Source of the DNA: an uncultured Candidatus Saccharibacteria bacterium
GTDB taxonomy: Bacteria > Patescibacteriota > Minisyncoccia > Ryanbacterales > GWA2-47-10b
NCBI GenBank assembly: GCA_964653715.1
Contig: CAZZGX010000027.1
Coordinates: 1,836 to 65,835 of the forward strand
Direction: 5' to 3'
DNA: 64,000 nucleotides
Positions 1,891 to 64,000 of this stretch are shown in pieces. Numbering within the stretch: the stretch's first letter is position 1; every line of letters begins with the position of its first letter. Made by a program: the position numbers and the translations under genes. The notes under the pieces were generated by a model. It ran no database searches and was not told the DNA's origin. It saw only the letters and a list, made by a program, of their open reading frames with translations.

Positions 1891-2806
1891 CGGGCTTGGA
1901 CAATTTATGCTTTCACTTTTGGCGTTTTTCCAAATTGAAACATCGCAATTTGCGCTTTCAAATCCAGCCCCGTTTCCTCCGCCACCTCGCGTTCAGGAAC
2001 AGGTATCTCTGCCCGGTATCTTAATACCAGAAACTCTCACGGCAAAAGCAATTATTGTCGCCAATTTAGACCGAGGGGAATCATTGGCAGAGAAAAATCT
2101 AGATATGCTTTTGCCGATCGCGAGCCTTAGTAAAATTATGACGAGTTTTGTTGCAGAAAAGTACCTCGAGCCTGAAACGAAACTTACTGTCTCGAGAGAT
2201 GCCGTCACAACGCCCGGAGCTGCTGGGGATTTCGAATTTGGCGAGCAGTTTCAATTTGAAGATTTGCTGACCGCCATGATGATGTATTCTTCCAACGACG
2301 CGGCGATGGTTGTCGCGGAACATGTGGGAGAAATCCTCGGAGGCGCCGCGTATGAAGAAAAAATAAGCCGCTTCGTCAGTGCCATGAATGAAAATGCGAA
2401 AGTATTAGGCATGGATCATACAATATTTCAAAACCCGACCGGTCTGGATGTGCGCCCAAGTGAGCCAAGCAACTACTCAACCGCTCGTGATCTCCAGCGT
2501 CTCGTTGTCGAAGTTCGTAACAATGGTAACCACGCGTGGGAACTTTCACGAAATGCAGAAAAGAACATCCGCTCTTCTGCAGGAAAAATCCATCATCTCA
2601 TAAATATCAATGAACTTTTGGATAAAGTCCCGCATGCTCTCGGCGGTAAAACTGGTAGCACAGATGCTGCCGGCGAATCAGTTATCGTGCTCTATGAATA
2701 TCCCCTTGGCAAACCCGGGGTACTTATTCTTCTTGGTGCCCAAACAGGTCAAAGATTTAAAGAAGGGGAAGAACTGCTCAAGCAAATTATGCCTCTCATT
2801 CAATAA
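1883..2806 (+). CDS. D-alanyl-D-alanine carboxypeptidase (S11 / PBP5-like serine peptidase)
   Basis: SxxK (ASLSKIMT), SxN (SSNDAA) and KTG (GKTGST) active-site motifs occur in the correct order. Confidence 0.8.
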   Translation: MINGLGQFMLSLLAFFQIETSQFALSNPAPFPPPPRVQEQVSLPGILIPETLTAKAIIVANLDRGESLAEKNLDMLLPIASLSKIMTSFVAEKYLEPETKLTVSRDAVTTPGAAGDFEFGEQFQFEDLLTAMMMYSSNDAAMVVAEHVGEILGGAAYEEKISRFVSAMNENAKVLGMDHTIFQNPTGLDVRPSEPSNYSTARDLQRLVVEVRNNGNHAWELSRNAEKNIRSSAGKIHHLININELLDKVPHALGGKTGSTDAAGESVIVLYEYPLGKPGVLILLGAQTGQRFKEGEELLKQIMPLIQ

Positions 2807-3880
2807 ATGGAAAATTCTCATACCGTTCTCGACGTGCTCAAAGTATTCGGTCTTGCCGGGTTTTCATTTTTTGTCGCGTTTTTCTTAACGCCGCTTTTGA
2901 CCTATTATCTCTATCGATATAAACTGTGGCCAAAAAAAAATGATCGCGAAGCGCTTTCAGGCGGTCATGCGACTGTTATTTCCAGCTTAGTCAAAGAGCG
3001 TTCAAATCAAGAGACTCCTCGAATGGGGGGAATCATTATTTGGGGAACGACGCTTGTTGTCACTCTCCTTTTTTGGGTACTTGGGAAAATTATTCCTGAT
3101 CCATTATTCGTAAAGCTAAATTTTCTCTCACGCGAGCAAACATGGCTTCCGTTCTTTGCGTTTATGACGGCGGCATGTATCGGACTTCTTGATGACTGGA
3201 TGCTTATTCGTGGGCAAGGCAAATACATAGGTGGAGGGATGGCGCTTACCATGCGCATTCTTCTTGTGGTAGGTATTGGAACAATTGGGGGATTTTGGTT
3301 CTATGGTCCGCTCGGCAGGGGAGATATCTCTATTCCGTTCTTAGGAGCGCTGCATCTTCAGTATTTTATTATTCCATTTTTTGCGCTTGTCATGCTCGCC
3401 GTTTTTAGCTCTGGCGTTATAGACGGACTTGATGGCCTTGCGGGCGGAGTGTTCGGCGCGATTATTGCCGCCTACGCCGGGATCGCTTTTTTCCAGCAAC
3501 AACTTAATCTTGCCGCGTTTCTTGCCGTTATTGGAGGGGCATTGCTTGCTTTTTTATGGTACAACATCCCTCCCGCGCGTTTTTATATGGGGGAATCAGG
3601 AATTCTGGGGCTTACTTCTATGATCACGGTTATCGCATTTTTAACCGATGCCGTAGCTGTTTTACCAATTATTGCTTTTCCGCTCGTCATCGAAACAGGA
3701 TCTGTTATCATACAGGTAGCCTCAAGAAAATTGCGTGGCAAAAAGGTCTTTATCGCGGCCCCTCTCCATCACCACTTTGAAGCAAAGGGCTGGCCCCACT
3801 ATAAAGTCACTATGCGGTTCTGGATTGTAGGCCTTGTTTCAGCACTCATCGGTATGGTCGTGCATTTGATTGGCAAATAA
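2807..3880 (+). CDS. mraY: Phospho-N-acetylmuramoyl-pentapeptide transferase
   Basis: Polytopic membrane protein with MraY signatures GLLDDW and APLHHHFE. Confidence 0.9.
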   Translation: MENSHTVLDVLKVFGLAGFSFFVAFFLTPLLTYYLYRYKLWPKKNDREALSGGHATVISSLVKERSNQETPRMGGIIIWGTTLVVTLLFWVLGKIIPDPLFVKLNFLSREQTWLPFFAFMTAACIGLLDDWMLIRGQGKYIGGGMALTMRILLVVGIGTIGGFWFYGPLGRGDISIPFLGALHLQYFIIPFFALVMLAVFSSGVIDGLDGLAGGVFGAIIAAYAGIAFFQQQLNLAAFLAVIGGALLAFLWYNIPPARFYMGESGILGLTSMITVIAFLTDAVAVLPIIAFPLVIETGSVIIQVASRKLRGKKVFIAAPLHHHFEAKGWPHYKVTMRFWIVGLVSALIGMVVHLIGK

Positions 3881-47389: not shown

Positions 47390-47400
47390 CATCGAAACAT

Positions 47401-47892
47401 TTAACGAGTTATTACAATAGAAGCAGCGTTGCCTACCTCACATGAACCAACAGTGACAGAGTTATTTGCGTTCTTGATTAAGTAATAACCAGTTTTCCCC
47501 GCATTCCATGTACCTGTTTCAGCAGGACTTATTGGTATAGATCCCAAGTGACCTCCTGTCTGCAGAGCTGTTAGATCAACACAATTAGTACCTGCGACGG
47601 GAACGCATGGAAGATTTGAGGCGGCAGTACAAGCAGCGCCAGTATTTGTCCCTATCATATAGTTTGTACCAGCAGTCAGAAGCGTGATTGAAGGAATATA
47701 ATTTCCTCCGTTATCAACCTGATTGACGCGAACCGCGCTCAAAATTGCAGATACATCCGCAAAGCGGCGTGAGTCACGCGCGTCTCGAAAGCGCTTTAAG
47801 GGATCAAGTGCGACAAATACGATCGCCGCGAGAATCGCGATAATGGCGATAACGATTAAAAGTTCAATTAATGTAAATCCTCGTTTTTTCAT
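47401..47892 (-). CDS. Type IV major pilin (prepilin-type N-terminal cleavage/methylation domain)
   Basis: MKKRGFTLIELLIVIAIIAILAAI is the class III signal G/FTLIE. It has its own strong terminator. Confidence 0.9.
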   Translation of the reverse strand: MKKRGFTLIELLIVIAIIAILAAIVFVALDPLKRFRDARDSRRFADVSAILSAVRVNQVDNGGNYIPSITLLTAGTNYMIGTNTGAACTAASNLPCVPVAGTNCVDLTALQTGGHLGSIPISPAETGTWNAGKTGYYLIKNANNSVTVGSCEVGNAASIVITR

Positions 47893-49682: not shown

Positions 49683-49684
49683 TT

Positions 49685-50107: not shown

Positions 50108-50108
50108 A

Positions 50109-50618: not shown

Positions 50619-50619
50619 C

Positions 50620-53600
50620 CTATTTATAATTAACTCTAACTTCCTTGAGTACCGGCGAGCTCGCGCCGTCTCCACTTAAAAATACTTTGTACTCGACCCA
50701 TCGATTGCCATTGAGCGCGGTCGGCACCAAAGAAGCATTTCTAGCGGTAAAATATGTTCCGGCCCCGCCGGCCCCGTACCACGGTGTCCAAACGCCCGGC
50801 AAACCTGATACATCGGGTGCCGTCCGCAATTGAAATTGAACTGAACACGCGGGAACACATACGGGGATTGATTCATCCCACTCAATAATCTGGACTGGCG
50901 AGGGATCGGACATATTAAAATTTGAAGATGTGAGGAAGCCGCTCCCCACATAGGCGCTTCGCCGCAAAATAACTCCCTGCGCGCCGACAATCCACCCCAC
51001 ACTTTGATTGACCATTTTGACCGCGTTGAGCACGGTGGATACAGGCGACGAGTATACCTGCCACGTTGAGCCGTCCCAATGAAGAATGGTCCCGCCAGCG
51101 CCGACAATCCATCCGTCAGTTGCGGATACCATGTACACGCTATTGAGTGTCGCCGATGTTGGGGATAGAACCGATTGCCACGCGCAGATTGGGGCACAAA
51201 TATAGCGATAAATTCTTCCATTCCCGCCGACAATCCATCCGTCAGTTGCGGATACCATGTACACGCTGTTCCACGCTTGCGTGGAAATCGTTTGAGATGA
51301 CCACGAAGAACCATTCCAATGGAGCACTACCCCGTTATTCCCTACGGCCCAACCGTCACTCGCAGAAATCATGTATATGCTATTGAGTCCCGAACTAGTC
51401 GGAGATGAAACCGCTTGCCACGCGCCACCCGTTTGCCACCCGCCTCCAGTAAAATGCCGGATATTGCCTCCCAAACCCACAACCCACGCATTATCAGGAG
51501 CAAGCGCAAAGAGCGATCGCCACGCGGCAGAACCCTGCTGCAAACTTACGGCGGTAGTACCGTCCCAATGAAAAATTTTTCCCCCGCTTGCCGCAATCCA
51601 GCCATCATTTGCGGAAACCATGGAAATACTATTGAGATCGTTGGTGCTGATATTTGTGGCAAGCGTCCATCCAAAACCATCAAAATGCAGAATGTCTCCG
51701 TTGTTCGTAACGGCCCAAATATTATCCTGCGTGACAATGGAAAGATCGTTGATCGATTGTGTTGTTACAGGATTATATAGAATTGTAATATCCTGAAACT
51801 GTGGTGACACGCTGCCAACGGTGCCACGAGTAAAAGTGACACGGTACTGAAAATATCGGCGAGCGGGCGAACTAATGCTTGAGTTTATATTGTTCGTTTG
51901 TTCAGCTGAAAACGATGACCAGCTTGCATCGGGCGCGGGCGTATTGCCGGTTCTTGTAGAAACTGTCATGGTAGTGCCCACTGGTACCGCTTGAGACCAA
52001 TACATGAGAGCCCAGGTTGTGAGAGGATTGCCGCCATCGAAAATTCTGGAAAAGAGTGTTCCCACGCTCACGTATGATATATCGTAATACGCGATACGCC
52101 CAGAACTTCCAAGAGTCCAGCCGTGCGTTGCATCTTGCATTGTGACTGCATTCCAGCTCATGCCCCCTAAATCAGTAACCTCGGACCACGCGCTTCCCGA
52201 ATAGCGATAGAGTTTTCCGGTTGATCCCGCAATCCAGCCGCTGCTCGGTGATAGCATAAAAACATCATTTAAATTGGTACTCCCCGCAAAACTGCTTACC
52301 GTTTGCCACAAAGTTCCATTATAATGCCGGGCAATGCCATTGTTACCTACAACCCAGCCATCGCTCGCGGAAATCATAAATACCGAATTCCACGCTTCAT
52401 TGCCGGTATCAATTGATTTACTGCCGGTCCAATTGAGCTCATCCCAATGAAGAATTTTACCCGCGAGCCCTACCGCCCACCCATCACTAGATGAAACCAT
52501 ATAGATACTTTTCAAATCTTTGGTTCCAGCGGGCACTGCGTATGCGCCTGACCATGCCGTTCCGTTCCAACGTTTGATTGAGCCATTAGCGCCTACAATC
52601 CAAACATTATCTGCGGCAAGAACAAATACATCATTCCATGTCACGCTATCGCCGGTGCTCAAGAGCGTCCAAGTTGAACCATTCCATCTGTAAGTTCTCC
52701 CACCCGATCCAACCGCCCAACCATCGGTAGTTGTCCGCATATCAATCCCGCGGAGATTTACTGTGGCGCCTAAATTTGCGCTGACTGCCCAATTTGTTCC
52801 ATTGTACCGAAGCACCTGACCGGCATCGGTTACCGCCCAGACATCGCTGGGTCCAATCGCGTCCACATCGGTAATATTTTGAGTAGTCGCAACCGCGCTC
52901 GCCGCGTGCTCTGCCCACTGTTGCGCCTGTGCAAGCGCTACGCTTGCTCCAGCTCCCGTGCCATTTACCGCGGTACCGGACAAAGATCCCGCGTTAAAAT
53001 CAGAATCAGTAGTGTCGAAAAAACTATTTGCGTATGCAGGAACCCAGACACCGTTTGGCAACGCGCGAAGCGTAATTTGTCCTGGGGTTGTAGAGTTGTC
53101 AATATTCCCGTCGTCGCTGTTGTATTGTGTTGCGTTCGACCAGTTTGTCTGCCCCGCGCCTCCCGACCAATCAGTCTGGGTCCATTCACGAGAATCCCAA
53201 TTTGTAAGATACTCATTACGGTCAACATAACTAGAATTTCCCCACGACACGCGCACGCGGACATATTTTGAATGAATATCTTTGTAATTACCGCCAGTAG
53301 GGGGACAAGAAGCGATATTCCCAGCAGGATCGCGACATACCTCATCAAATTGGATGGTCCGCGTATATTTGCCGTTGATCAACTGCGATAACCCGGAAGT
53401 GAGCACCCAGCGATTGCCAACTTCCGAGACAACGGCCGGGCTCGGCACAATCTCATTCCACGCACCATCGCGTACCGAACGAACCGCCTCCATCCCCTCC
53501 TCGGCAAAATGGAACGCTTCTGTTTCTTCGCCTCCTTTGAGAAGTGCTGAAAAATTGCCCGCAGCTAGTGAGGCGATCGAAACCGAGAGAAGCAGGAAAA

Positions 53601-53661
53601 TCGCCATAGCGATAAGAATCTCCATGAGCGATTGGCCTTTTTTATAATCAAGCCGCTTCAT
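50620..53661 (-). CDS. Giant (1013 aa) pseudopilin with about 14 Ycf48/BNR-like beta-propeller blade repeats
   Basis: N-terminus MKRLDYKKGQSLMEILIAMAIFLL (G-x4-E prepilin motif), followed by about 14 repeats of the form (S/T)xxDGW(A/I)VG..G.I..W.G..W. Confidence 0.8.
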   Translation of the reverse strand: MKRLDYKKGQSLMEILIAMAIFLLLSVSIASLAAGNFSALLKGGEETEAFHFAEEGMEAVRSVRDGAWNEIVPSPAVVSEVGNRWVLTSGLSQLINGKYTRTIQFDEVCRDPAGNIASCPPTGGNYKDIHSKYVRVRVSWGNSSYVDRNEYLTNWDSREWTQTDWSGGAGQTNWSNATQYNSDDGNIDNSTTPGQITLRALPNGVWVPAYANSFFDTTDSDFNAGSLSGTAVNGTGAGASVALAQAQQWAEHAASAVATTQNITDVDAIGPSDVWAVTDAGQVLRYNGTNWAVSANLGATVNLRGIDMRTTTDGWAVGSGGRTYRWNGSTWTLLSTGDSVTWNDVFVLAADNVWIVGANGSIKRWNGTAWSGAYAVPAGTKDLKSIYMVSSSDGWAVGLAGKILHWDELNWTGSKSIDTGNEAWNSVFMISASDGWVVGNNGIARHYNGTLWQTVSSFAGSTNLNDVFMLSPSSGWIAGSTGKLYRYSGSAWSEVTDLGGMSWNAVTMQDATHGWTLGSSGRIAYYDISYVSVGTLFSRIFDGGNPLTTWALMYWSQAVPVGTTMTVSTRTGNTPAPDASWSSFSAEQTNNINSSISSPARRYFQYRVTFTRGTVGSVSPQFQDITILYNPVTTQSINDLSIVTQDNIWAVTNNGDILHFDGFGWTLATNISTNDLNSISMVSANDGWIAASGGKIFHWDGTTAVSLQQGSAAWRSLFALAPDNAWVVGLGGNIRHFTGGGWQTGGAWQAVSSPTSSGLNSIYMISASDGWAVGNNGVVLHWNGSSWSSQTISTQAWNSVYMVSATDGWIVGGNGRIYRYICAPICAWQSVLSPTSATLNSVYMVSATDGWIVGAGGTILHWDGSTWQVYSSPVSTVLNAVKMVNQSVGWIVGAQGVILRRSAYVGSGFLTSSNFNMSDPSPVQIIEWDESIPVCVPACSVQFQLRTAPDVSGLPGVWTPWYGAGGAGTYFTARNASLVPTALNGNRWVEYKVFLSGDGASSPVLKEVRVNYK

Positions 53662-54141
53662 CTATTGAATTTGAACAACCCCAAGAACGTTGACGCTGAC
53701 GGCAAGCGTGCCCCCCGTAGAATGCGCGAGTGTCACAAGACCTGCCGCCTGCGGCACGCCGAGACCCTTTGAAAAATAAACATCGCCCAGAGAAAAATTT
53801 GAACTTTGGGTTAGGGCCGAAGGCAAAACGGTTATCTGATCAATACTTGGGTCACGATTGGCAAAAGCAGGACTCGCGCTTGGCGATCCCCACAACGTAA
53901 AACGATTTGTATCAAAATGGACGCCGTATGTCATTCCTCCCGCGCGCGCGGCCGAACGCTCGCGCGCCTGTCTAAGAGTTGCCGCCAACTGATCGGCATA
54001 TTCGTCGAGTTGGGCGCCCCGATAAACATTGCTATAAAGTGGGGTCGCTAAAACCGCGAGTAAAAGGGTGATCGCGAGAACAATAACAAACTCAAAAGCG
54101 GTAAACCCTTTTTTAGCGCTGGATATTGCCCGTAAGCTCAT
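53662..54141 (-). CDS. Prepilin-type pseudopilin (minor pilin)
   Basis: MSLRAISSAKKGFTAFEFVIVLAITLLLA from ATG 54141, overlapping the pilC 3' end by 29 nt. Confidence 0.7.
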   Translation of the reverse strand: MSLRAISSAKKGFTAFEFVIVLAITLLLAVLATPLYSNVYRGAQLDEYADQLAATLRQARERSAARAGGMTYGVHFDTNRFTLWGSPSASPAFANRDPSIDQITVLPSALTQSSNFSLGDVYFSKGLGVPQAAGLVTLAHSTGGTLAVSVNVLGVVQIQ

Positions 54142-55198
54142 AGATGGGCGTAATGATGGCGAGCGCGAATATGACAACTATAATACCTATAATAAGCAAA
54201 AGCATGGGTTCTATAATAGTAGAAAGTGATTTTGCGGTCGTATCGACTCCTTCCTCATAAAAATTAGCAAGATATAAAAGTGTCTCCTCAAAGCGCCCGG
54301 ACTCTTCCCCAACCTGCACCATGCGCGTAACTATTTTAGGAAAAAGTTTTTTGTGCGACTCGAGACTTTCGGCAAGTTTTCCTCCTTTACTGATGTGTAC
54401 CGACACGTCTTCAAGGGCGCGGCGATAATAAAAATTGCCGGTGCTTGAAGCGGTAATATCGAGCGCCTCATCGATATTGATTCCACTTTTAAGCAGCGTC
54501 CCCAGTGTTCTTGAAAAACGCGCGAGATTCGCGCCCATCACAAGGCGCTTGATAAGAGGCGTGTGCAAAAAAATCCAATGGGTCACGGGCTTTATAAAAT
54601 TTTGACGGATAAGCCATACAAAGAAAAAAATAAAAAATACGAGACCAAGAAGCAGCCAAACGCCATCATTTTGAATAAGGTGCGCGAACCAAATAAGAGC
54701 GCGCGTGCTCATTGGTAAGTCTATCTTAAGTCCCTCAAAAAGAGGTATGATCTTTGGAAGCACAACAAAGGACATAAAAATACCGAGGATAAATGTGGCA
54801 ACAAGAATGAACCCGGGATACACCAAGGCGCCTGTCACTTTTGCCGTAAGCTCTTTTTCCTTTTCAAGCTCTTGGGCAACGCTCTCAAGATTTTCGGCGA
54901 GCTGCCCCGAGGCCTCCCCTGCACGCACCGATTCCGTAAAAAGGCCCGAAAATACTCGAGGATAATCTGAAAATGACGAGGAAAGGGAACGCCCCGTCTC
55001 AACCGCTTTGAGGACTCCTCCGAGCGTCGGCTTCAGTCTGCCTTCAGCCGCGTCTGCCGCGATTGAAAGCGCCTCAATGATTGTAAGACCAGACCGCAAC
55101 ATCACTGCCAAGTGCTTGGCAAGCAATGCTCGTTGGGTAAGGCTTACCCCACCAAAAGAAATAGAACGATTTAATTTTTTTACGCTACTTGTTTTCAT
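54113..55198 (-). CDS. pilC: Type IV pilus platform protein PilC (GspF family)
   Basis: Two T2SSF repeats and three TM helices. 361 aa. Confidence 0.85.
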   Translation of the reverse strand: MKTSSVKKLNRSISFGGVSLTQRALLAKHLAVMLRSGLTIIEALSIAADAAEGRLKPTLGGVLKAVETGRSLSSSFSDYPRVFSGLFTESVRAGEASGQLAENLESVAQELEKEKELTAKVTGALVYPGFILVATFILGIFMSFVVLPKIIPLFEGLKIDLPMSTRALIWFAHLIQNDGVWLLLGLVFFIFFFVWLIRQNFIKPVTHWIFLHTPLIKRLVMGANLARFSRTLGTLLKSGINIDEALDITASSTGNFYYRRALEDVSVHISKGGKLAESLESHKKLFPKIVTRMVQVGEESGRFEETLLYLANFYEEGVDTTAKSLSTIIEPMLLLIIGIIVVIFALAIITPIYELTGNIQR

Positions 55199-55581
55199 TT
55201 TTTTCGCTTTGCCAAATGCGTCCGAACCAGCTCCGGCAATTTATTTATTGAAAAATCGGTTTTAACAAGATAGTCGGCGGCACCCAGTTCAAGCCCTGTT
55301 TTGATGTCCGACTCTTGCCCGAGATTAGTGAGAATAATAACCGGAATATGTTTTGTTTCTTTATTAAGCTTAATCTCACTTAAAATATCAAAACCGTTTT
55401 TTTGCGGCAAAATAATATCAAGGAGCACCAAATCCGGTTTCTCCTGCACTACCTTCCCAAGCCCTTCCTCACCTGAAATCGCCATACTGACTTCAAATCC
55501 TTCGCGCTTGAGCTTATCGCTATAGAGCTTTAGAAGAAACTTGTCGTCCTCGATAATAAGAATGTTTTTTTTGTCGTCCAT
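55195..55581 (-). CDS. Single-domain response regulator (CheY-like receiver)
   Basis: ILIIEDDKFLLKLY...LVLLDIILPQKNG has the phospho-acceptor Asp context. 128 aa with no output domain. Confidence 0.85.
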   Translation of the reverse strand: MDDKKNILIIEDDKFLLKLYSDKLKREGFEVSMAISGEEGLGKVVQEKPDLVLLDIILPQKNGFDILSEIKLNKETKHIPVIILTNLGQESDIKTGLELGAADYLVKTDFSINKLPELVRTHLAKRKK

Positions 55582-55584
55582 TGT

Positions 55585-56304
55585 TTAACGCAAGGGTAAT
55601 GTGAAATAAAAAGTGGTTCCTTTCTCTGGCACACTCTCAAACCATATAGTGCCGCCGCTTGCCATAATGATCGCCTTCGAAATGAAAAGCCCGAGCCCCG
55701 AGCCTTCGGCGGCGAGCGCTACCACGCGCGGACTCCGATAAAATTTACTGAATATTTTCTTGCGGTCTGTGGTCGTGATGCCAACACCGCTATCGGCACA
55801 GGCAAAAAGGACCTCTTTTGTATTTTTTGTAACGGCAACCTTAATATTTCCCTTTCCTTTATTATAGCGTATTGCGTTGTAAATAATATTGGTCACGACT
55901 TCTTGGATTTTAGTTGCATCTATCGAAATAAGAGCCACGGGGGAAGGCACATCCAGCGAAATAGTGGTGTTTTTGGCGCTGGCAAACGCGGTAAGATCTT
56001 TAATCACAGTTCGTACGATCTCAACAAAATCAGAAGGACTTTTTTCAAGCGTCATGCGGCTCTCGTCAATCCGAGAAGCATCAAGCAAATTTTTGACAAG
56101 CTGAATCATCTTATCCGTGCCTCCATAGGCTAGGCGCAAATATTCTTCCTGTTCGGGAGAAAGTTTTCCCAAATCGCCGGAAAGAAGCACCTCTATCGAA
56201 GACTTTATGCCCGCGAGCGGAGTTTTCAATTGATGCGCGATAACCGACGTAACTTCGGTAATTCTTTTTTCGCTTTTAAGTGAAAGTGTTTTTTTTGATC
56301 TCAT
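55585..56304 (-). CDS. Sensor-less histidine kinase (DHp + HATPase_c only)
   Basis: H-box IAHQLKTPLAGI and N/G1/G2 boxes (NAIRYN, DSGVGI, GSGLGL). No TM or sensor domain. 239 aa. Confidence 0.85.
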   Translation of the reverse strand: MRSKKTLSLKSEKRITEVTSVIAHQLKTPLAGIKSSIEVLLSGDLGKLSPEQEEYLRLAYGGTDKMIQLVKNLLDASRIDESRMTLEKSPSDFVEIVRTVIKDLTAFASAKNTTISLDVPSPVALISIDATKIQEVVTNIIYNAIRYNKGKGNIKVAVTKNTKEVLFACADSGVGITTTDRKKIFSKFYRSPRVVALAAEGSGLGLFISKAIIMASGGTIWFESVPEKGTTFYFTLPLR

Positions 56305-56306
56305 TG

Positions 56307-58094
56307 TTATTCTTTAGTGGCGCGGATAACTTCTTCAAGCGTGGTAATGCCTACAATAACTTTCTGAATCCCGTCCTCGAGCATCGTGGTCATGCCGCTA
56401 CTCTCTGCCACTTTCATAATTTCGATAGAGGCCGCCCGTTTGGTAATTAAATCTTTAATTTCATCGTTCATCAAAAGCACTTCAAAAATTCCAACCCGCC
56501 CGAGGTATCCCGTGCTAGAGCAAACAGGACATCCCCCGCCCTTGTAAAAACGAATTTTCGCAAACGACGATTTATTCTTTATCTTTAAAAGCTTTTTTAA
56601 GTGCGGGTCCTCTTCGATCATTGCCTTTTCCTCCGGAAGAAGTTTATACGAGACGCGGCACTTCTCACAAATGCGGCGCACGAGTCGCTGGGCGATGATA
56701 CAATTGACGGTTGAGGCCACAAGAAATGGCTCGACCTTCATATCCAAAAGGCGCGGCAGAGTGGTCGCCGCGTCATTTGCGTGGAGCGTTGAGAGGACGA
56801 GGTGGCCGGTCATGGCTGAGTTTACGGCGATATCAGCGGTTTCCTCATCGCGGATCTCGCCGACCATAATCATGTCCGGGTCCTGCCGGACGATCGCGCG
56901 AAGTCCTTTTGCGAACGTCAGATTGGTTCTTGAGTTTACCTGAATTTGGCTGACTCCTTCAATTTCATATTCAACAGGATCCTCAATGGTTGAGATATGA
57001 ACGTCGCGGGTGTTTAAAATTTTGAGCATGCCGTAGACCGTCGTCGTCTTCCCGGATCCCGTAGGGCCTGTTACAAGAATCATCCCGTGCGGATTGTCGA
57101 TCGAGCGGCGGACTTTTTTAAAATCAGCCTCACCCAACCCCAAATCCGTAAGGCCAAATTGCCGGCTCCGAGCCGAGAGGATACGCATGACGACATTTTC
57201 GCCTTCGGTCACCGGCACAATGGAAATACGAACGTCCACTTTTTCATCATCGGCCTCAAAAGCAAGCTTACCATCCTGTGCCGCGCGGTGCTCGTCAGTA
57301 CGCATTTTCGATAATATTTTTATGCGCGTCAAAATCAAATCCATGAGCGCTTTGGGCACGTCAAGAACATCGTGCATAACGCCGTCAACTCGAAAGCGAA
57401 CCATTACCTTGCCGGGGTGCGGCTCCACATGAATATCGGATGCCTTTGAATCATATCCGTAGTGGAGCAGCATATCGACAACCTCAACGATAGTCTCGTC
57501 GCGCTCCTCTTTTGAAAGAAGAGTGTCGTTGAGCTTGCCAAGAATTTTTTTAAATTCATCGTGAATATTGGCTTTGTAGCGCGCGAGTACATCATCAAAA
57601 CTCCGGCGTGTCATGTAAAACGGCATGACTTTAGCGCCGAGCCGTTTTTCAAGAAGATGCGTTGCCTCAAAATCATCGGGATCGCGCATGCCTACCTTGA
57701 CGCCCGCACCCCTGCGCGAGAAGGCAACCACACCGCGCGCGCGCGCAACTGCTTCGGGAATTTCGTGAAGTAGCGCCTCATCAATTTTTTCTTCCTTAAG
57801 ATCGACGAAGGAAACTCCCAGCTCCTCTGCTATGATCTTACCTAGCTGGTCGTCATTGATAAGGTCCTTATCAATCAAAAGCTCGTCGAGTGCTTTCCCC
57901 TGCTCACCTGCTTCTTTTTTGGCAAGCTCAAAATCCGCCTCCGAGACAAGACCGGGCTTTACCAGCAACTCCTTTATTTTTTCATCGGTAAGGTCCACAG
58001 CTAAATTTAATTGTATTATAACTGAAAGCGGTAGATGGAGACAGTGCTTTGTTTTAAAGTATATATTGGTGGTCTTTGGAGGGATCAATGACAA
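56307..58094 (-). CDS. pilB: Type IV pilus assembly ATPase PilB (GspE family)
   Basis: N-terminal GSPII_E_N domain, Walker A GPTGSGKTTT, and a tetra-Cys motif (CEKC...CPVC). 595 aa. The N-terminus overlaps the divergent XRE gene; the true start may be the downstream GTG at 57998. Confidence 0.9.
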   Translation of the reverse strand: MSLIPPKTTNIYFKTKHCLHLPLSVIIQLNLAVDLTDEKIKELLVKPGLVSEADFELAKKEAGEQGKALDELLIDKDLINDDQLGKIIAEELGVSFVDLKEEKIDEALLHEIPEAVARARGVVAFSRRGAGVKVGMRDPDDFEATHLLEKRLGAKVMPFYMTRRSFDDVLARYKANIHDEFKKILGKLNDTLLSKEERDETIVEVVDMLLHYGYDSKASDIHVEPHPGKVMVRFRVDGVMHDVLDVPKALMDLILTRIKILSKMRTDEHRAAQDGKLAFEADDEKVDVRISIVPVTEGENVVMRILSARSRQFGLTDLGLGEADFKKVRRSIDNPHGMILVTGPTGSGKTTTVYGMLKILNTRDVHISTIEDPVEYEIEGVSQIQVNSRTNLTFAKGLRAIVRQDPDMIMVGEIRDEETADIAVNSAMTGHLVLSTLHANDAATTLPRLLDMKVEPFLVASTVNCIIAQRLVRRICEKCRVSYKLLPEEKAMIEEDPHLKKLLKIKNKSSFAKIRFYKGGGCPVCSSTGYLGRVGIFEVLLMNDEIKDLITKRAASIEIMKVAESSGMTTMLEDGIQKVIVGITTLEEVIRATKE

Positions 58095-58342
58095 AGGACG
58101 GTATTAATCAGAAGTTCGTGGCACGACGGATTCGAGAAGCGATAGATATGCATGCCGAAGGCGATATCCAGCTATTTGCGCATTACGTCGGGCTCTCTGC
58201 TTCAGCAATGTACAACTATATCCATACCGAAAGAACCCCTTCAACCAGAGCGCTTTGGAAAATATCTAGATTCACGAACTTGCCAATGGAATGGTTTCTC
58301 ACAGAACCCAAACGGCAAATCACGAACCTTTCAGACAATTAA
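58076..58342 (+). CDS. XRE-family helix-turn-helix transcriptional regulator
   Basis: Cro/C1-type HTH (FAHYVGLSASAMYNYIHTERTPSTRALWKISRFTNLPMEWF). 88 aa. Confidence 0.65.
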   Translation: MEGSMTKDGINQKFVARRIREAIDMHAEGDIQLFAHYVGLSASAMYNYIHTERTPSTRALWKISRFTNLPMEWFLTEPKRQITNLSDN

Positions 58343-58346
58343 AAAA

Positions 58347-58371
58347 ACCGCCCACGGGCGGTCTTTTTTTT
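58347..58371 (+). terminator. Intrinsic terminator (A7-ACCGCCC-ACG-GGCGGT-T9)
   Basis: GC hairpin plus U-run 5 nt after the XRE stop. Confidence 0.8.
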
Positions 58372-58387
58372 ATTAAACACGTCTGCA

Positions 58388-58417
58388 TTGACAAAAGAAC
58401 AGTTTTAGTGTAAGAAT
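58388..58417 (+). promoter_or_regulatory. Consensus-like sigma70 promoter TTGACA-17 nt-TAAGAAT
   Basis: Perfect -35 hexamer, 17-nt spacer and a good -10. About 20 nt downstream lie AAGGAGG and an ATG at 58448. Confidence 0.6.
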
Positions 58418-58447
58418 AAGTTAGACAAATTTGCCAAGGAGGTTTCA

Positions 58448-58909
58448 ATGCGGCGAATCAGGCGATTCTTTCAAAAAATAACTCTCATCGAACTCATCGC
58501 GATTTGTGCAGTGGGAGGTATTACAGGCAAAATGTACCTTCTCGTGCGAGAGCGACAAGATCTGCGAATGCAGATCGGTGTCGTACTGCTCGAGCATAAG
58601 CTCGTGTATCGTTACGAAGAGCGCGGGTTTGGCACTCTTGCGCGTCTTTGCAAAAGTACACCGCGCAAATGGCGCGAGTTTTACTTTACCTGCAAAGCAA
58701 CGAAAAGACCAAGTGCGCCAGCCTCGCTTGTAACCACGATATACCGCAATCGATTCGCGGCCAATCATAAATACGCCGCTTTCAAGCGGCGCTGGCAATC
58801 ATCTGAATGGATCCCCATTCGGCGCTCACCCGGACTTGTCTCGCGACAAGTCCGTTTTTTTATTTATCCGGAAATTCTTTTTAAAATTGTTCTTTCAATA
58901 AAAAAATGA
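58448..58909 (+). CDS. Hypothetical highly basic small protein, OR an untranslated about 440-nt RNA (ORF runs through its own terminator)
   Basis: The best promoter and SD in the window sit upstream. The 153-aa ORF (MRRIRRFFQKITLIELIAICAVGG...) continues about 50 nt past an intrinsic terminator at 58831-58862. Confidence 0.3.
   Translation: MRRIRRFFQKITLIELIAICAVGGITGKMYLLVRERQDLRMQIGVVLLEHKLVYRYEERGFGTLARLCKSTPRKWREFYFTCKATKRPSAPASLVTTIYRNRFAANHKYAAFKRRWQSSEWIPIRRSPGLVSRQVRFFIYPEILFKIVLSIKK
58831..58862 (+). terminator. Intrinsic terminator (CGGACTTGTC-TCGC-GACAAGTCCG + T8)
   Basis: Perfect 10-bp stem plus U-run. It lies inside the 58448 ORF. Confidence 0.75.
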
Positions 58910-58938
58910 GGGTGTCCGGCACCTAGCAGGACACCCTC
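58901..58938 (-). terminator. Intrinsic terminator for minus-strand gene 58978..59580 (GAGGGTGTCC-N11-GGACACCCTC, T7 on minus)
   Basis: 10-bp stem preceded by A7 on plus. Convergent with the plus-strand terminator 40 nt away. Confidence 0.7.
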
Positions 58939-58977
58939 TTAGTCGCAGACACCTGATCAACTTGCTTTAGCCATCGC

Positions 58978-59580
58978 TTACTCGTAAACCACGAGCTTGT
59001 TGTCTCGGTGGTCAAGCGCGATTCGCGGTGGAAGACTCCACTCCTCTGCAAGTTTCTCGACCAGCTGGTCTGACGGCTTGGCAAGTTTGCAACTTTCGTC
59101 GCTAAGCTGGACCCAATTGCCGAACTTGCGCGCGTAGTAGCCATCATCACGCTTTTCTACACGGAACGCGTAGAAACTCGCTTGGTCCTTCGCCTGTGCC
59201 TTATACGCGCCTTTCTGTCCATGCTTGTCTGCGGCGCGTTCGCGGCAAACCGGGCAAGCGCGGTGAAGCTTCAAGAAATCAGAGAAACTGTAATAGGCAT
59301 TCCCGTAGCCGTGGGAATACTCCTCCCTCCCTTCGACGAGCAGGAGTTCTGCTCTACCCGTGGGAACAATTTCGGAGCAATAGGTGCACCAAGTCATTCC
59401 GCGAGCATGGAGTTCCTGCTGGAGAAGCTCGACGCGTTTCGCGCCGTATTCGCTAACTACCTGCCGGAGTGTCTGTTGCTTGGCGGAAAGTTTGAGTGAA
59501 ATCTGGTCGATGTTCTGTGCTGTACGCTCGGCCCGCTTACGCATGGCCAAAAGCTCTGTCGCCATCGCTTCTTGTGCCAT
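58978..59580 (-). CDS. Hypothetical coiled-coil protein with CxxC...CxxC zinc ribbon
   Basis: 200 aa. N-terminal heptad region, then CTYCSE-x27-CPVCRE. SD AAAGGAGAG 7 nt upstream. Local GC is above the window background. Confidence 0.55.
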   Translation of the reverse strand: MAQEAMATELLAMRKRAERTAQNIDQISLKLSAKQQTLRQVVSEYGAKRVELLQQELHARGMTWCTYCSEIVPTGRAELLLVEGREEYSHGYGNAYYSFSDFLKLHRACPVCRERAADKHGQKGAYKAQAKDQASFYAFRVEKRDDGYYARKFGNWVQLSDESCKLAKPSDQLVEKLAEEWSLPPRIALDHRDNKLVVYE

Positions 59581-59654
59581 AAAAAGCTCTCCTTTTTATG
59601 TTTGATTGTTGGAGTTCCATAAACAAGCTACCAAAAACAGCAATAAAAATCAAA

Positions 59655-59688
59655 CGAAAACAGAAACCATTTCAAATTTCTGTTTTCG
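59655..59688 (-). terminator. Terminator hairpin (CGAAAACAGAAA-N10-TTTCTGTTTTCG), T-rich on minus side
   Basis: Perfect 12-bp stem 30 nt downstream of the 59717 stop. Confidence 0.55.
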
Positions 59689-59716
59689 AAAAATCTTTAT
59701 GAAAAAAATTCTTTTG

Positions 59717-60001
59717 CTATTTGATTTTCCTCTCAAGACGAGCAACGCGGGTTTCGAGAAATTTAAACTCATCACGAGTTATTTGATTGTGGCGGATAAG
59801 CGCAAGTTCCGATTTCATAATATCAATATCGCCTTCGACTTTCATGAGCTTCTCGTCAATTTTATCTAATCTTCTCGTATGTTGTTTTGTCTCATCGCGG
59901 ACAAAATCCAAACTTTCTCCAAATACTCTAAAATCAGAGTGGATATTCTCTAAAACAATAGTATAAGCGTCTTTTTCTCTTATCTGCTTTCTCTTGGCCA
60001 T
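59717..60001 (-). CDS. Hypothetical coiled-coil protein (94 aa)
   Basis: Heptad-rich (…LDKIDEKLMKVEGDIDIMKSELALIRHNQITRDEFKFLETRVARLERKIK), AT-rich, with its own terminator. Confidence 0.45.
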   Translation of the reverse strand: MAKRKQIREKDAYTIVLENIHSDFRVFGESLDFVRDETKQHTRRLDKIDEKLMKVEGDIDIMKSELALIRHNQITRDEFKFLETRVARLERKIK

Positions 60002-60063
60002 AAATTTATCTTATCCCCAGAATCTACAAAAGTCAAAATAAGAATCTACAACTCCGTCTCAAA

Positions 60064-60150
60064 GCGGAGAGGGTGAGATTCGAACTCACGAGAGGATTGC
60101 TCCTCTGGCGGTTTTCAAGACCGCTGCCTTCAACCACTCAGCCACCTCTC
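60064..60150 (-). tRNA. tRNA-Ser (anticodon UGA), class II with long variable arm, CCA not encoded
   Basis: Hand fold: GGAGAGG-TG-GCT-GAGTGGTTGAA-GGC-A-GCGGT-CTTGAAA-ACCGC-CAGAGGAGCAATCCTCTC-GTGAG-TTCGAAT-CTCAC-CCTCTCC-G. Confidence 0.85.
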
Positions 60151-60195
60151 CGCTCTACTACGGAATCATTTCAAATTTTTAAGACCGCCGCCTTG

Positions 60196-60405
60196 TCGCG
60201 CTTATCACGCGGTTAAACATGACACGAGTCATGTTTAACGGGCTTCCCGCCTCGCCTCGATGGTGAGTCGAGGCGGGCGCCCGTCAAAAGCAACCCCATT
60301 GCTTTTGACCCACCCAGCCACCCCACCAGTGCAAATAGAATATCAAAATTGGGGCGAATTTCAACTTGAAAATAAATTCGGGGACGTTCCTTTTGGAACG
60401 TCCCC
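60196..60405. repeat. Cluster of four unrelated perfect/near-perfect GC-rich palindromes (stems 11-12 bp) plus minor AT palindromes
   Basis: 60212-60239 GTTAAACATGAC/GTCATGTTTAAC. About 60249-60279 CGCCTCGA/TCGAGGCG. 60283-60309 GTCAAAAGCAA/TTGCTTTTGAC. 60378-60405 CGGGGACGTTCC/GGAACGTCCCCG; the last also acts as terminator for the 60427 gene. Confidence 0.8.
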
Positions 60406-60426
60406 GACTCTTTGTTCGGCCAGCAA

Positions 60427-60735
60427 CTAGACCGGACGGATCTCGTGCACTTTGCGCTGCAACACGACGACCTTGCCATTGAGCGGCGTGGCCACCTGGA
60501 TGCGTTTGCCCACACGGCGGCGCACTTTGCCTGTGAACTCTCGCCTCCCATGCGTAAGCCTTACCTGGTCGCCCGGCGTAATCTTCACAGTGACGCCTTC
60601 GACGATGGTCCCATCTGGAAGGATCAGATCCCGTGGCTCCAGATGCTCGAGGCTCACCGGGGGTACAAACTCTTTGACCCCAGGCCGCAGGTATAGTAGA
60701 GCAGCAACTCCGATGAAAATCAGCAAAATGCTCAT
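60427..60735 (-). CDS. Hypothetical small membrane-anchored protein encoded in a 60+% GC segment
   Basis: 102 aa. SD GGAAGGAGG 6 nt upstream. N-terminal TM (MSILLIFIGVAALLYL) then a beta-rich domain (ILPDGTIVEGVTVKITPGDQVRL...). Hand-counted GC about 63% over 120 nt versus about 33-45% elsewhere. Confidence 0.55.
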   Translation of the reverse strand: MSILLIFIGVAALLYLRPGVKEFVPPVSLEHLEPRDLILPDGTIVEGVTVKITPGDQVRLTHGRREFTGKVRRRVGKRIQVATPLNGKVVVLQRKVHEIRPV

Positions 60736-60874
60736 TTCTGCCTCCTTCCTTCATTGTAAAACAGTTTCATGAACCCAAAAACATTATATCATAATTATAT
60801 TGATTGTCAATATTCGTATAAATCTATTGTTATGCGCGATACTTCGTGCTAGGGATAAGCAGTAATTTATACCA

Positions 60875-62092
60875 ATGAATACCACCAAGGTAGTACAAGA
60901 ACTTGCCCAAGGACCAACACTTTCCATTATCGCGCTTATTGACGCCCTCATAGAAGAAGCGCACGGCCTCCGCGCATCGGACATTCATATTGACCCCAAT
61001 GAAAAAGAAGTTAAAGTGCGCGTGCGCATCGACGGTGTACTGCAAGACACCTATTCCATTCCTAAAGAAATCCAATCTGAAGTTATAACGAGAATTAAAG
61101 TCCTCTCTGGACTCCGCACGGACGAGCACCAAGCGCCGCAGGACGGGCGTTTTAGAATCGTACTTGCAGAGCAAAGTCCAATTGATATTCGCGTATCCAT
61201 CGCGCCTTCTTATTACGGAGAAAATGCGGTTTTGCGTCTTCTTTCCGAACGATCAGAAAAATTCGCGCTTGAGATGCTTGGCTTCAGCGAAGAAAACCAA
61301 GAAAAAATCGCGCGCGCCATCAGAAACCCATATGGAATGATACTGGCAACGGGACCAACGGGATCAGGCAAAACCACGACGCTCTACACCATTTTAAAAC
61401 AGCTCAATACAAAAGAGGTTTCCATTATAACGATCGAAGATCCGATAGAATACGCGCTCGACGGAATCAACCAGATGCAGGTCAACGCGCGGAGCGGTCT
61501 CACGTTTGCAAACGGCCTTCGCTCTATTTTGCGTCAAGACCCTGACATCATCATGGTTGGCGAAATCCGCGATTCCGAAACCGCCGGGCTTGCGGTAAAC
61601 ACGGCGCTCACCGGTCACCTCGTTCTATCCACACTTCACACAAACGACGCGGCAACCACACTCCCCCGCATGCTTGATCTGGGTCTCGAGCCGTATCTCA
61701 TCACTGCCACGGTAAATCTAGTTATTGGCCAGCGACTTGTCAGAAAAATATGTAGAGAGTGCAAAAAAGAGCACGAACTTACGCCTGCGGAACAAAAAAG
61801 TCTCGCAACAACAAAAAATATCCCGGCCTCGTTTAGTCAAATGCGCTCGGTGTGGCGAGGAGCTGGCTGTGAAGCATGCAACGGCAGTGGCTATAGAGGA
61901 CGCCTCGGCATTTATGAGATCATCGAGGTCAACGACGAGCTCAGAAACGCCATGCTCGAGCGATGCTCGTCTGAAAATATAAAAAAAGTTGCGATCCAAC
62001 ATGGCATGAGAAGCATGGTCGAGGACGGTTTTAAAAAAGTATTCAGAGGTCTCACCACCTTCGAAGAAGTTCTCCGCGTCATCCATGAATAA
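60875..62092 (+). CDS. GspE/PilB-family secretion ATPase, short form (second copy)
   Basis: Walker A GPTGSGKTTT, Asp/His boxes, and a tetra-Cys motif (CRECKKEH...CEACNGSG) that marks GspE/PilB rather than PilT. 405 aa. Confidence 0.85.
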   Translation: MNTTKVVQELAQGPTLSIIALIDALIEEAHGLRASDIHIDPNEKEVKVRVRIDGVLQDTYSIPKEIQSEVITRIKVLSGLRTDEHQAPQDGRFRIVLAEQSPIDIRVSIAPSYYGENAVLRLLSERSEKFALEMLGFSEENQEKIARAIRNPYGMILATGPTGSGKTTTLYTILKQLNTKEVSIITIEDPIEYALDGINQMQVNARSGLTFANGLRSILRQDPDIIMVGEIRDSETAGLAVNTALTGHLVLSTLHTNDAATTLPRMLDLGLEPYLITATVNLVIGQRLVRKICRECKKEHELTPAEQKSLATTKNIPASFSQMRSVWRGAGCEACNGSGYRGRLGIYEIIEVNDELRNAMLERCSSENIKKVAIQHGMRSMVEDGFKKVFRGLTTFEEVLRVIHE

Positions 62093-63173
62093 GCCAAAAC
62101 TCTCCGCAATGTCTCTTTCTCTCTTCCGCACCCGTCTGTCGCTTCGGGATCAGGCGCTTTTTGCCAAACGCCTTTCGCTCCTCTCACGTGCAGGCGTAAC
62201 GCTGCTTGAATCGATCAACATCATGAACCGCCAGAGTAAGGGCGCTAGAAAAAAAATGTATGAGGAGATTGAGAATGATTTAGCAAACGGACAATATTTA
62301 TCAAAAAGTCTCGCGCGACACCACCATAGCTTTGGCAACTTTGCCATAAATATTATTCGAGTCGGCGAGACAACTGGCACGCTTTCAGATAATTTGCTCT
62401 ACCTCTCGGAAGAAATCGACAAAAAAAGAGAATTGCGAGGAAAAGTCATCGGCGCCCTTATCTACCCGATCATTATCATGGTATCAGCGCTCGCAATTGC
62501 CGGATTTTTAACGATTTACCTTTTTCCAAAACTTATGCCGGTGTTTCAAAGCTTAAACGTAAAGTTACCAATAACGACGCGAGCGCTCATCTGGATAAGC
62601 ACATTTCTCATCGCCTACGGGCCTTGGATAATCGCCGGCCTCGTGGTGGGATTGATCGCGCTTTTCATTGCGTTGCGGGATGAACGTGTTCGGTTCATTT
62701 TTGATCATTTTCTTTTAAAAATTCCTGTCATGGGCGATGTACTTCAGCACTATCATATCAGCAACACCTGCCGCACCATGGGGCTCCTATTAAAAAGCAA
62801 CGTGCGCGTCTTGGAATCTGTTACGGTGGCAGCAGAAACTTCAAGCAATTTGCCCTATAGATACGCGCTCGCGCACCTTAAGACCGCAATCACCAAAGGG
62901 TCAAATATCGCGAAACAACTCGAGAAAAAACCGGGTCTTTTCCCCATCATGCTCACCGAGATGATCGCAATCGGAGAGAAAACCGGTAATCTGTCCGAGA
63001 CGTTTCTCTATTTATCTGGAATCTACGAACAGGAACTTGATGAAAAAACTAAACGACTTTCCTCAACTATTGAACCCGCCATGATGCTGGGAATGGGACT
63101 GCTTGTCGGCTTTATCGCAGTCTCCATCATCACGCCTATTTATGAGGTTACGCAACACTTGCAACCAAGGTAG
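62085..63173 (+). CDS. GspF/PilC-family platform protein (second copy)
   Basis: Two T2SSF repeats and three TMs, translationally coupled to the upstream ATPase (8-nt overlap). Confidence 0.85.
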   Translation: MNKPKLSAMSLSLFRTRLSLRDQALFAKRLSLLSRAGVTLLESINIMNRQSKGARKKMYEEIENDLANGQYLSKSLARHHHSFGNFAINIIRVGETTGTLSDNLLYLSEEIDKKRELRGKVIGALIYPIIIMVSALAIAGFLTIYLFPKLMPVFQSLNVKLPITTRALIWISTFLIAYGPWIIAGLVVGLIALFIALRDERVRFIFDHFLLKIPVMGDVLQHYHISNTCRTMGLLLKSNVRVLESVTVAAETSSNLPYRYALAHLKTAITKGSNIAKQLEKKPGLFPIMLTEMIAIGEKTGNLSETFLYLSGIYEQELDEKTKRLSSTIEPAMMLGMGLLVGFIAVSIITPIYEVTQHLQPR

Positions 63174-63642
63174 GGAAAAAAGCAGCGCGGGAATTACCGT
63201 GACTGAAATTATGCTCGTCTTAGGCATTATGTCCATCGTGTCCGGATTTTCGCTCTTTGCCAACATGGATAGTTACCGTGGATACGCGTTTCGAGGAACC
63301 CGGGACATGTTGGTGGCAGTTTTACAAAAAGCCAGAAGCCAAAGTATTAACAACATGTGTTTTGGAAGCGCGTGTACTGACGGCAAACCACACGGAGTGC
63401 ATTTTACCCCCGGCCAATACGTCATTTTCCAAGGTGCAAGCTGGGCCGCGCGCGACGCCGCACTTGATGAAATTGTAAAAATTGAGAGCGCGAATGTGCA
63501 AGTAAGCGGGCCCGATATTGTTTTCGCGCAACTCTCAGGAAACGCGAGCCCAGCGGGAGGCGTCATCACCGTGGTCGATGATGCAAGCCACTCTTCAGTA
63601 ATCTCAGTTAATGGAGAGGGCCAGATACTTTGGACAAATTAA
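63142..63642 (+). CDS. Prepilin-like protein (atypical long leader, G-ITVTE motif)
   Basis: …KSSAGITVTEIMLVLGIMSIVSGF has G then E at +5. The only in-frame ATG upstream is at 63142, a 17-aa leader overlapping pilC2. Confidence 0.5.
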   Translation: MRLRNTCNQGREKSSAGITVTEIMLVLGIMSIVSGFSLFANMDSYRGYAFRGTRDMLVAVLQKARSQSINNMCFGSACTDGKPHGVHFTPGQYVIFQGASWAARDAALDEIVKIESANVQVSGPDIVFAQLSGNASPAGGVITVVDDASHSSVISVNGEGQILWTN

Positions 63643-63646
63643 TTAT

Positions 63647-64000
63647 ATGAAAAAGAACAACACAAAAACGGCAGGATTTTCAATATTTGAGATTCTCATC
63701 GCGATGACGATAATGATTGTCACCATTTCAGCGGTCGTTCTTGTCGCATTTGGCAACCAATCGGTTCTCATCGATAGCCAGACCAATACAGAGGCGATCG
63801 CAAAAGCGCAAGAACTTTTGGAGAGCGCGCAAGCTGCCGCCCGGAAAGATTTTAAACTGGTCAACCCAGTACCGTTAACGACGGCTACGGACGCGGACGG
63901 ATGGACCTACACAAAAAAAGTTGACATCACGGGATCTGATTTTTTCATGAAAGAGATCAAGGCCACTATTTCATGGCAGGGCGACCACAATAGGTCTCTC
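63647..64000 (+). CDS. Prepilin-type pilin/pseudopilin, 5' part (continues past window end; not in ORF track)
   Basis: Hand translation from ATG 63647: MKKNNTKTAGFSIFEILIAMTIMIVTISAVVLVAFGNQS..., a canonical GFxxxE class III signal. Confidence 0.8.
   Translation, partial: MKKNNTKTAGFSIFEILIAMTIMIVTISAVVLVAFGNQSVLIDSQTNTEAIAKAQELLESAQAAARKDFKLVNPVPLTTATDADGWTYTKKVDITGSDFFMKEIKATISWQGDHNRSL

Follow-up and report, generated by a model that had tools for sequence, protein, structure and literature searches.

How should an open reading frame (ORF) be read when it begins under strong expression signals and then runs straight through an intrinsic terminator before reaching its stop codon? The question is raised by ORF153, a frame of 153 amino acids (aa) on the plus strand (58448..58909; ATG at 58448, TGA at 58907-58909) of a 64,000-nucleotide (nt) stretch, hereafter the window, of contig CAZZGX010000027.1 from an uncultured Candidatus Saccharibacteria bacterium (assembly GCA_964653715.1). 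The answer we favour, giving it about even credence, is that positions 58388-58861 form a self-contained cassette for a translated messenger RNA (mRNA) and not a free-standing non-coding RNA (ncRNA), and that the cassette's product is a pilin-derived protein, very basic and specific to the lineage. Two signals coexist here: the ORF is ready for translation and of pilin ancestry, and the transcript folds exceptionally well. A translated, highly structured mRNA of an autonomous, genome-specific cassette would account for both. The claim rests on one metagenome-assembled genome, and its present value is that of a candidate, not a discovery.

ORF153 has intact transcription and translation signals

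Direct reading of the sequence recovered every expression element listed by an initial annotation of this DNA: TTGACA (-35) at 58388-58393, TAAGAAT at 58411-58417 after a 17-nt spacer, and the Shine-Dalgarno (SD) sequence AAGGAGG at 58436-58442, 5 nt before ATG 58448, all on the plus strand. Parsed as hexamers, the first two make a sigma-70-type promoter (58388..58417) of the form TTGACA-18-AAGAAT, with an upstream TG that gives an extended -10 element (TGn-AAGAAT) and a consensus score of 10/12; transcription would start near 58424. The initial annotation had ranked this promoter and SD as the best in the window. The elements are there, but four other promoters outscore this one (one of 12/12 with TG, at 60810 on the minus strand, and three of 11/12), and the SD, although in the top tier, is equalled by GAAGGAGG-5-ATG at 60746 on the minus strand. 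Of the window's 24 copies of AGGAGG, five precede an ORF of at least 100 aa. In the predicted fold of the transcript the SD had a mean unpaired probability of 0.71 and the AUG one of 0.63, compared with 0.39 for the whole RNA, and both sites are predicted to be largely accessible to ribosomes.

In only 136 of 20,000 dinucleotide shuffles (0.68%) did no stop interrupt the frame between the ATG and the terminator. The other two plus-strand frames contain two and three stops, and their only ORFs (GTG 58506 and TTG 58648) both lack an SD; the proposal that the real product is a shorter peptide in another frame is not supported. A candidate minus-strand gene (ORF 58445..58798) was rejected, having no SD or promoter and a codon score that merely mirrors the plus frame. 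An assembly error at ORF153 is unlikely because an independent Logan assembly (L001) was 100% identical across the region.

The window's best promoter/SD pair serves a different gene. A perfect sigma-70 promoter, TTGACA-16-TGnTATAAT (12/12 with extended -10), lies at 60783-60810 on the minus strand and is followed by GAAGGAGG-5-ATG of a 102-aa ORF (60427..60735, minus strand), an uncharacterised small gene.

The N-terminus resembles a prepilin but lacks the cleavage glycine

Its resemblance to prepilins is the most informative clue to the nature of ORF153. The N-terminus consists of the basic leader MRRIRRFFQK followed by ITLIELIAICAVGGITG, and the prepilin-like hydrophobic segment, ITLIELIAICAVGGITGKMYLLV, is encoded at 58478..58546. 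The features of a prepilin are present in turn: the leader is short and basic, position +1 is hydrophobic, position +5 is Glu, and a hydrophobic helix spans about 20 residues, here with Gly at +13/+14. The exception is the prepilin peptidase site, which lacks its Gly at -1: FFQK is joined directly to ITLIEL, with Lys at -1. We searched a six-frame translation of the window for the prepilin-type pattern x-[TS]-x-x-E-x-x plus six hydrophobic residues and found four occurrences, compared with 0.015 expected from composition-matched shuffles. Three of these lie in real pilin-like genes, at 47401..47892 (minus strand), 63103..63642 (plus strand) and about 63674 (plus strand). The fourth is in ORF153, where the pattern follows the start by 10 residues, the spacing of real prepilins.

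With cut-offs of 21.2 bits for PF07963 and 16.3 bits for TIGR02532, the major pilin of the window reaches 38.9 and 37.5 bits, respectively. Changing K10 to Gly in silico gave ORF153 14.4 bits with PF07963, and inserting Gly after K10 gave 16.9 bits, alongside 12.6 and 15.9 bits for two real pseudopilins of the window. A PF07963 match thus needs the Gly, and ORF153 is therefore one glycine short of a typical, if weak, prepilin signal. The Lys at -1, the pattern count and the Gly-restored scores all agree with the initial annotation, in which the N-terminus was said to mimic a prepilin helix without the Gly cleavage site. Prepilin peptidases require a near-invariant Gly at -1; by analogy with their known substrates, the ORF153 product should escape the peptidase and stay anchored by its N-terminus.

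Set beside type IV prepilins and pseudopilins (class III signal peptide; PF07963 N_methyl, TIGR02532), ORF153 shares the short basic leader, the x-T-L-I-E-L motif with Glu at +5, Ala at +11 and Gly at +14, the hydrophobic run of about 20 residues and a size of about 140-150 aa. It also has the strong promoter, SD and terminator expected of a pilin gene, and its surroundings are a pilus locus that holds four real pilin-like genes. It differs from them in the Lys that replaces the near-invariant Gly, so that cleavage is not expected; in being missed by the profiles in its native form; in an extremely basic C-terminal part with no pilin fold detected; and in a stop codon beyond the terminator. 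As ORF153 fails the defining Gly test, we do not class it as a prepilin.

The reading frame crosses a probable terminator and borrows its stop codon

The hairpin crossed by the frame, on the plus strand at 58831..58861, has a perfect 10-bp stem (arms 58831-58840/58845-58854), the loop TCGC and a T run of seven (58855-58861), then ATTTAT. The initial annotation had the perfect 10-bp hairpin and an overrun of about 50 nt right (48 nt separate the T run from the end of the frame), but its T8 is a T7. Judged by this consensus form, the hairpin is probably a functional terminator. Because it precedes the stop codon, transcripts ending there, which hold 137-138 codons and no stop, would be non-stop messages; that outcome is a direct consequence of the anatomy, provided that the terminator works, and the 153-aa product would then come only from read-through transcripts. 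Eleven strong terminator-like sites were found in the 64 kb, and 58831-58861 is the only one within a long sense ORF, the others being intergenic or only within presumed non-coding ORFs (60284..60754 and 60213..60551). Two weak, 7-bp terminator-like sites lie within real ORFs.

Beyond the hairpin the frame continues through an AT-rich spacer (58862..58899), read as codons 139-151, into the terminator of the convergent gene p200, which encodes a 200-aa protein (58978..59580, minus strand). This terminator (58900..58938, minus strand) has its hairpin at 58908-58938 and a T7 on the minus strand, seen as A7 at 58900-58906 on the plus strand, and is the second, convergent terminator of which the initial annotation had spoken. 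It is kept in five relatives, and alignment homology with the relatives' p200 module stops near 58898; the last two Lys codons and the TGA of ORF153 therefore come from the p200 terminator.

The transcript is exceptionally structured

Folding of the whole unit gave a z-score of -5.5, and no shuffle folded as well. The coding part without the terminator still gave -5.2 on the plus strand and -4.2 on the minus strand. The unit was more extreme than 126 of 128 sampled 400-nt tile-strands, exceeded only by a hairpin cluster at 60001-60400. The structure is unevenly spread, starting only past the stretch that encodes the N-terminal helix: local z was -0.6 at 58424-58543 and then -2.7 to -5.2, with the densely structured part at 58510..58830 (local z to -4.1 and -5.2). 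The partition function held 14 helices with pairing probability >0.9. At that level there are hairpins at 58514-41, 58553-83, 58592-603, 58646-97 (a 17-bp arm), 58774-91 and 58804-21, with three consecutive hairpins at the 3' side, and long-range helices at 58453-59/58752-58 and 58605-11/58737-43.

The covariance-model check matched this structure to no known family: Rfam cmscan with permissive filters returned nothing for either strand of 58424-58861 at E up to 10. The only weak Rfam hits were generic terminator look-alikes on the terminator of the upstream helix-turn-helix (HTH) gene, and at gathering scores the whole window yielded two transfer RNAs (tRNAs) only. ARAGORN found no transfer-messenger RNA (tmRNA) in the window, a result that is uninformative for the whole genome.

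The window's most structured stretch lies elsewhere. Between ORF 60427..60735 (minus strand) and tRNA-Ser (60064-60151, minus strand), positions 60152-60426 hold a dense, GC-rich cluster of long perfect hairpins (13-, 12-, 12- and 9+3-bp stems; z -7.6 for 275 nt). The tile 60001-60400 reaches z of about -11 on both strands, and the cluster has no Rfam match beyond the tRNA.

Relatives of ORF153 were sought widely

ORF153 and the gene upstream of it, the XRE/CI-type HTH gene HTH84, form a short islet between pilB and tRNA-Ser in a Parcubacteria type IV pilus locus. A word search of 5.8 billion clustered proteins returned for ORF153 only the query itself, and an exhaustive phmmer search of 1.84 billion representatives returned the query and one 187-aa protein (P0080). 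We rejected P0080 as a relative: it results from translating an unrelated tandem repeat, three copies of which inflate its E-value. Its source, positions 1124-1554 of a JGI 3300034101 contig (L014), is a GC-rich 159-nt tandem repeat of 2.7 copies that are 94% identical. No relatives were found in viral contigs or JGI metagenomes; phage DNA, phage protein and plasmid DNA searches gave two chance-level hits only (E 0.07-0.2); and no family matched in Pfam, NCBIfam, PHROGs or PADLOC. In all, neither ORF153 nor HTH84 had a homologue in about 15 billion proteins or in related loci. At twelve genome loci with p200, only p200's own terminator aligned with the window, and fourteen metagenome loci with pilB relatives (57-69% identity) had none of the islet's genes; the islet is thus absent from 26 of 26 related loci. 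As ORF153 has no relatives, neither covariation nor the ratio of non-synonymous to synonymous substitution (dN/dS) is computable.

An origin within the window was considered in three forms, as a template of a diversity-generating retroelement, a paralogue or a duplicated pilin 5' end, and rejected, since ORF153 has no DNA similarity elsewhere in the window. A search around the islet for a tRNA-Ser attachment-site repeat and for flanking inverted repeats found none.

Phage 'morons' and the accessory genes of phage immunity regions are single genes with their own sigma-70 promoter and intrinsic terminator. ORF153 is like them in having both, in standing beside a CI/XRE-type repressor gene and in being absent from related genomes; unlike them, it has no prophage, integrase or attachment repeats found around it. 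A phage origin of the cassette is suggested only by the profile matches of HTH84.

Coding evidence for and against a translated cassette

Over codons 1-127, the per-codon log-likelihood was 0.124 in frame 0 and -0.05 and -0.09 in the other frames. Frame 0 scored 2 standard deviations (sd) above shuffles (P 0.02) and fell among the values of real accessory genes in the neighbourhood (p200, 0.145; major pilin, 0.067). Along the frame the score was 0.09, 0.25 and 0.02 per 40 codons; the whole-ORF value of 0.20 is inflated by the AT-rich tail past the terminator, which scores 0.81.

Several observations weigh against a translated cassette. The codon score, although best in frame 0, is 2 sd below the window's long genes (in their lowest 2%), and a score lying 2 sd from both shuffles and real genes means that coding statistics do not decide. 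The composition is odd (isoelectric point 11.1, Arg 13.7%, one Asp, 0.65%), with no enrichment of G at codon position 1. Seven other coding sequences, among them three pilins and p200, fold with z of +1.3 to -1.8, compared with -5.2 for ORF153. A canonical terminator before the stop codon is never seen for real genes of this window. The native protein has no PF07963 or TIGR02532 match at E up to 10; with no homologues for an alignment, its single-sequence AlphaFold2 model is uninformative (predicted local distance difference test score 42), also as regards a C-terminal alpha/beta pilin globular domain; and for want of a homologue there is no evidence of selection on the protein.

Even so, we judge it very unlikely that the ORF is incidental to the RNA, because the SD and ATG are accessible, the open frame has P of about 0.007, and the prepilin-type N-terminus sits right behind a basic leader. 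The translated cassette is also favoured by its setting in a type IV pilus locus, by the phage-repressor matches of HTH84, by the absence of the islet from the 26 related loci and by the lack of any Rfam match at E up to 10.

Proposed expression of the cassette

From this anatomy we infer the following course. Transcription would begin at the good extended -10 promoter, near 58424, and ribosomes would load at the exposed AAGGAGG/AUG, making first the basic leader and then the prepilin-type hydrophobic helix (ITLIELIAICAVGG...). With no Gly at -1, the peptidase would not cut, and the product would be an N-terminally anchored membrane protein and not a pilus subunit. Past the helix-coding part, the message is predicted to be full of stable hairpins and long-range helices. 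Transcripts ending at the internal terminator would yield a non-stop product of 137-138 residues, subject to ribosome rescue; the TGA borrowed from the neighbour's terminator would be reached by read-through transcripts only. Behind a phage-repressor-like HTH gene, such a cassette may be a young, decaying or re-purposed accessory gene of the moron kind, and its terminator-before-stop layout may reflect decay or recent birth, or else deliberate control.

Alternative explanations

The strongest competitor, which we consider unlikely but would not neglect, is that the unit is an expressed remnant or chimera. In this account a pilin gene contributed no more than the promoter, SD, leader and N-terminal helix; what follows (about 58550-58861) is structured sequence without a coding role, across which the frame remains open by chance. 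The product would be junk and the unit in decay. It overlaps with the explanation that we favour, and the sole difference is the lack of a present function. It accounts well for structure that begins just past the helix-coding part, for the loss of the Gly at -1, for a terminator not preceded by a stop, for the uneven codon score, for the atypical composition and for both islet genes being orphans. It sits less well with the state of the unit: promoter, SD and terminator are all intact, ORF153 has no frameshifts or in-frame stops, and the chance of about 105 more codons remaining open is a few percent (scaled from the shuffles).

If the layout is instead deliberate, ORF153 could be non-stop by design, with the internal terminator as a regulatory device, as in arfA and brfA; we regard this as improbable. 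In arfA of E. coli and brfA of B. subtilis an internal terminator or cleavage site generates a non-stop mRNA and places the product under trans-translation control (PMC6881298). The brfA gene has 71 sense codons, a rho-independent terminator inside its ORF and a product of about 62 aa (PMC6881298). ORF153 has the same architecture: the terminator or cleavage site of these genes lies in the ORF, about 10-17 codons before the stop (PMC6881298), and ORF153 continues for about 15 codons past its terminator. The part lost on termination is hydrophobic, and the truncated C-terminus is basic. The likeness ends with the layout. In sequence ORF153 does not resemble ArfA or BrfA, and it matches no family of Pfam or NCBIfam, the Pfam ArfA and BrfA/YqkK families included. 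ArfA and BrfA are soluble ribosome-binding factors of 55-62 aa (family about 55-72 aa) that are conserved across species, whereas ORF153, at 137-153 aa, is twice their size, has a membrane-type N-terminus with a hydrophobic anchor and is unique to one genome. Its stop, borrowed from the neighbour's terminator, looks accidental, there are no relatives in which a terminator-in-ORF layout is conserved, and the window has no tmRNA gene, with the limit on that result given above.

Much the same low probability attaches to a structured ncRNA of about 440 nt (58424-58861), in which the SD, ATG and open frame are incidental. Its case is the fold itself, with z-scores for the unit and for its terminator-less part that no shuffle equals and that nearly all tile-strands fall short of, many helices above 0.9 pairing probability, some closing the 5' and 3' ends, a clean promoter and terminator of its own, the latter before the stop codon, and an orphan ORF. 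The structured RNA proposed by the initial annotation is thus real as a structure, but the incidental ORF is not supported. Three independent coincidences would be needed: a consensus SD at ideal spacing, an open frame (P 0.007) and a prepilin-type N-terminus (0.015 expected per window). In addition, neither strand has an Rfam match, the absence of relatives means that there is no covariation, and the minus strand folds almost as well (z -4.2), which leaves no G-U signal specific to one strand.

That a 1-nt error or a very recent frameshift conceals an ordinary gene is very improbable. The true stop would be TGA 58804-58806 in frame +2, which sits 24 nt before the hairpin, the classical distance and a normal layout, and frame +2 is open from 58771; the shift would, however, have to be confined to 58771-58803, where there is no homopolymer and the independent read assembly is identical.

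Structured coding RNAs offer a last comparison. The mRNAs of hok-type type I toxins and dual-function RNAs such as RNAIII are about 400-500 nt long, have many stable hairpins and end-to-end pairing, and carry an ORF, and hok mRNA folds back on itself from 5' to 3'. The ORF153 transcript shares the hairpins, the end-to-end pairing and the ORF; it differs from them in an ORF that takes up its entire length, in an exposed SD and in having no visible antisense partner. A type I toxin-like module, meaning a structured, long-lived mRNA for a small membrane-active protein that is checked by RNA folding or an antisense RNA, would fit the hydrophobic helix after a basic leader and the mRNA of about 440 nt whose 58453-59/58752-58 pairing recalls the hok fold-back, but we give it hardly any weight: the SD is not sequestered (unpaired probability 0.71), no minus-strand promoter was found in 58400-58950, at 153 aa ORF153 is three times longer than known type I toxins (<60 aa), and no Pfam, NCBIfam or PADLOC family matches.

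Returning to the translated cassette that we prefer, one functional version can be put forward as a long shot. The cassette could be a phage-derived device that makes a prepilin decoy resistant to cleavage. Such a decoy would block the type IV pilus machinery of the host, for instance as a way of keeping out superinfecting phages. The output of the cassette might be gated by the in-ORF terminator, through translation-coupled read-through or trans-translation capacity, with the structured mRNA adding stability or control. If functional, ORF153 would be the first known gene with a non-stop-type layout that does not encode a ribosome-rescue factor, and an example of a pilin-like protein built to resist processing; both bear on how candidate-phyla-radiation bacteria, or their phages, control the pili on which they depend. 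If it is decaying or newborn, the locus would offer a clean snapshot of a strongly expressed orphan ORF made from a pilin 5' end and hairpin-rich sequence.

Genomic neighbourhood

Positions 45000-64000 of the window are taken up by a large type IV pilus locus. It contains two pilB/pilC pairs, at 56307..58094/54113..55198 on the minus strand and at 60875..62092/62085..63173 on the plus strand, and with a response regulator and a histidine kinase between them. To the same locus belong the major pilin (47401..47892, minus strand), several pseudopilins and, at 50620..53661 on the minus strand, a protein of 1013 aa whose N-terminus is pilin-like.

HTH84 (58088..58342, plus strand; gene call from L001) matches Pfam HTH_3 (E 1.8e-4) and PHROG transcriptional repressor families (E 1e-5), and a search of 5.8 billion proteins for homologues returned only itself. 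It also matches the N-terminus of the PADLOC RmrA models and is divergent from pilB. An intrinsic terminator at 58347..58371 on the plus strand (6-bp GC stem, C, T8) separates HTH84 from the ORF153 unit; over 58341-58371 it is strong and bidirectional-looking.

On the other side, p200 encodes a conserved Patescibacteria/Parcubacteria protein with 78 relatives, about 200-215 aa long and with four invariant Cys (TWCTxC ... CxxC), for which Pfam, PHROG and PADLOC gave no match. The gene keeps its own terminator in other genomes (loci L002-L013), while its neighbours differ in every genome and it is never linked to the ORF153 unit elsewhere. In one of these loci (L004) the terminator hairpin is changed on both arms in a way that looks compensatory. 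In Candidatus Brennerbacteria (L002, JACPEK010000004.1, positions 3523-4858), the p200 homologue lies between perfect 100-nt inverted repeats (3779-3878/4759-4858), has an additional 26-nt repeat pair and adjoins a 493-aa large serine recombinase (2159..3640, minus strand), an arrangement that suggests an invertible or mobile segment carrying p200.

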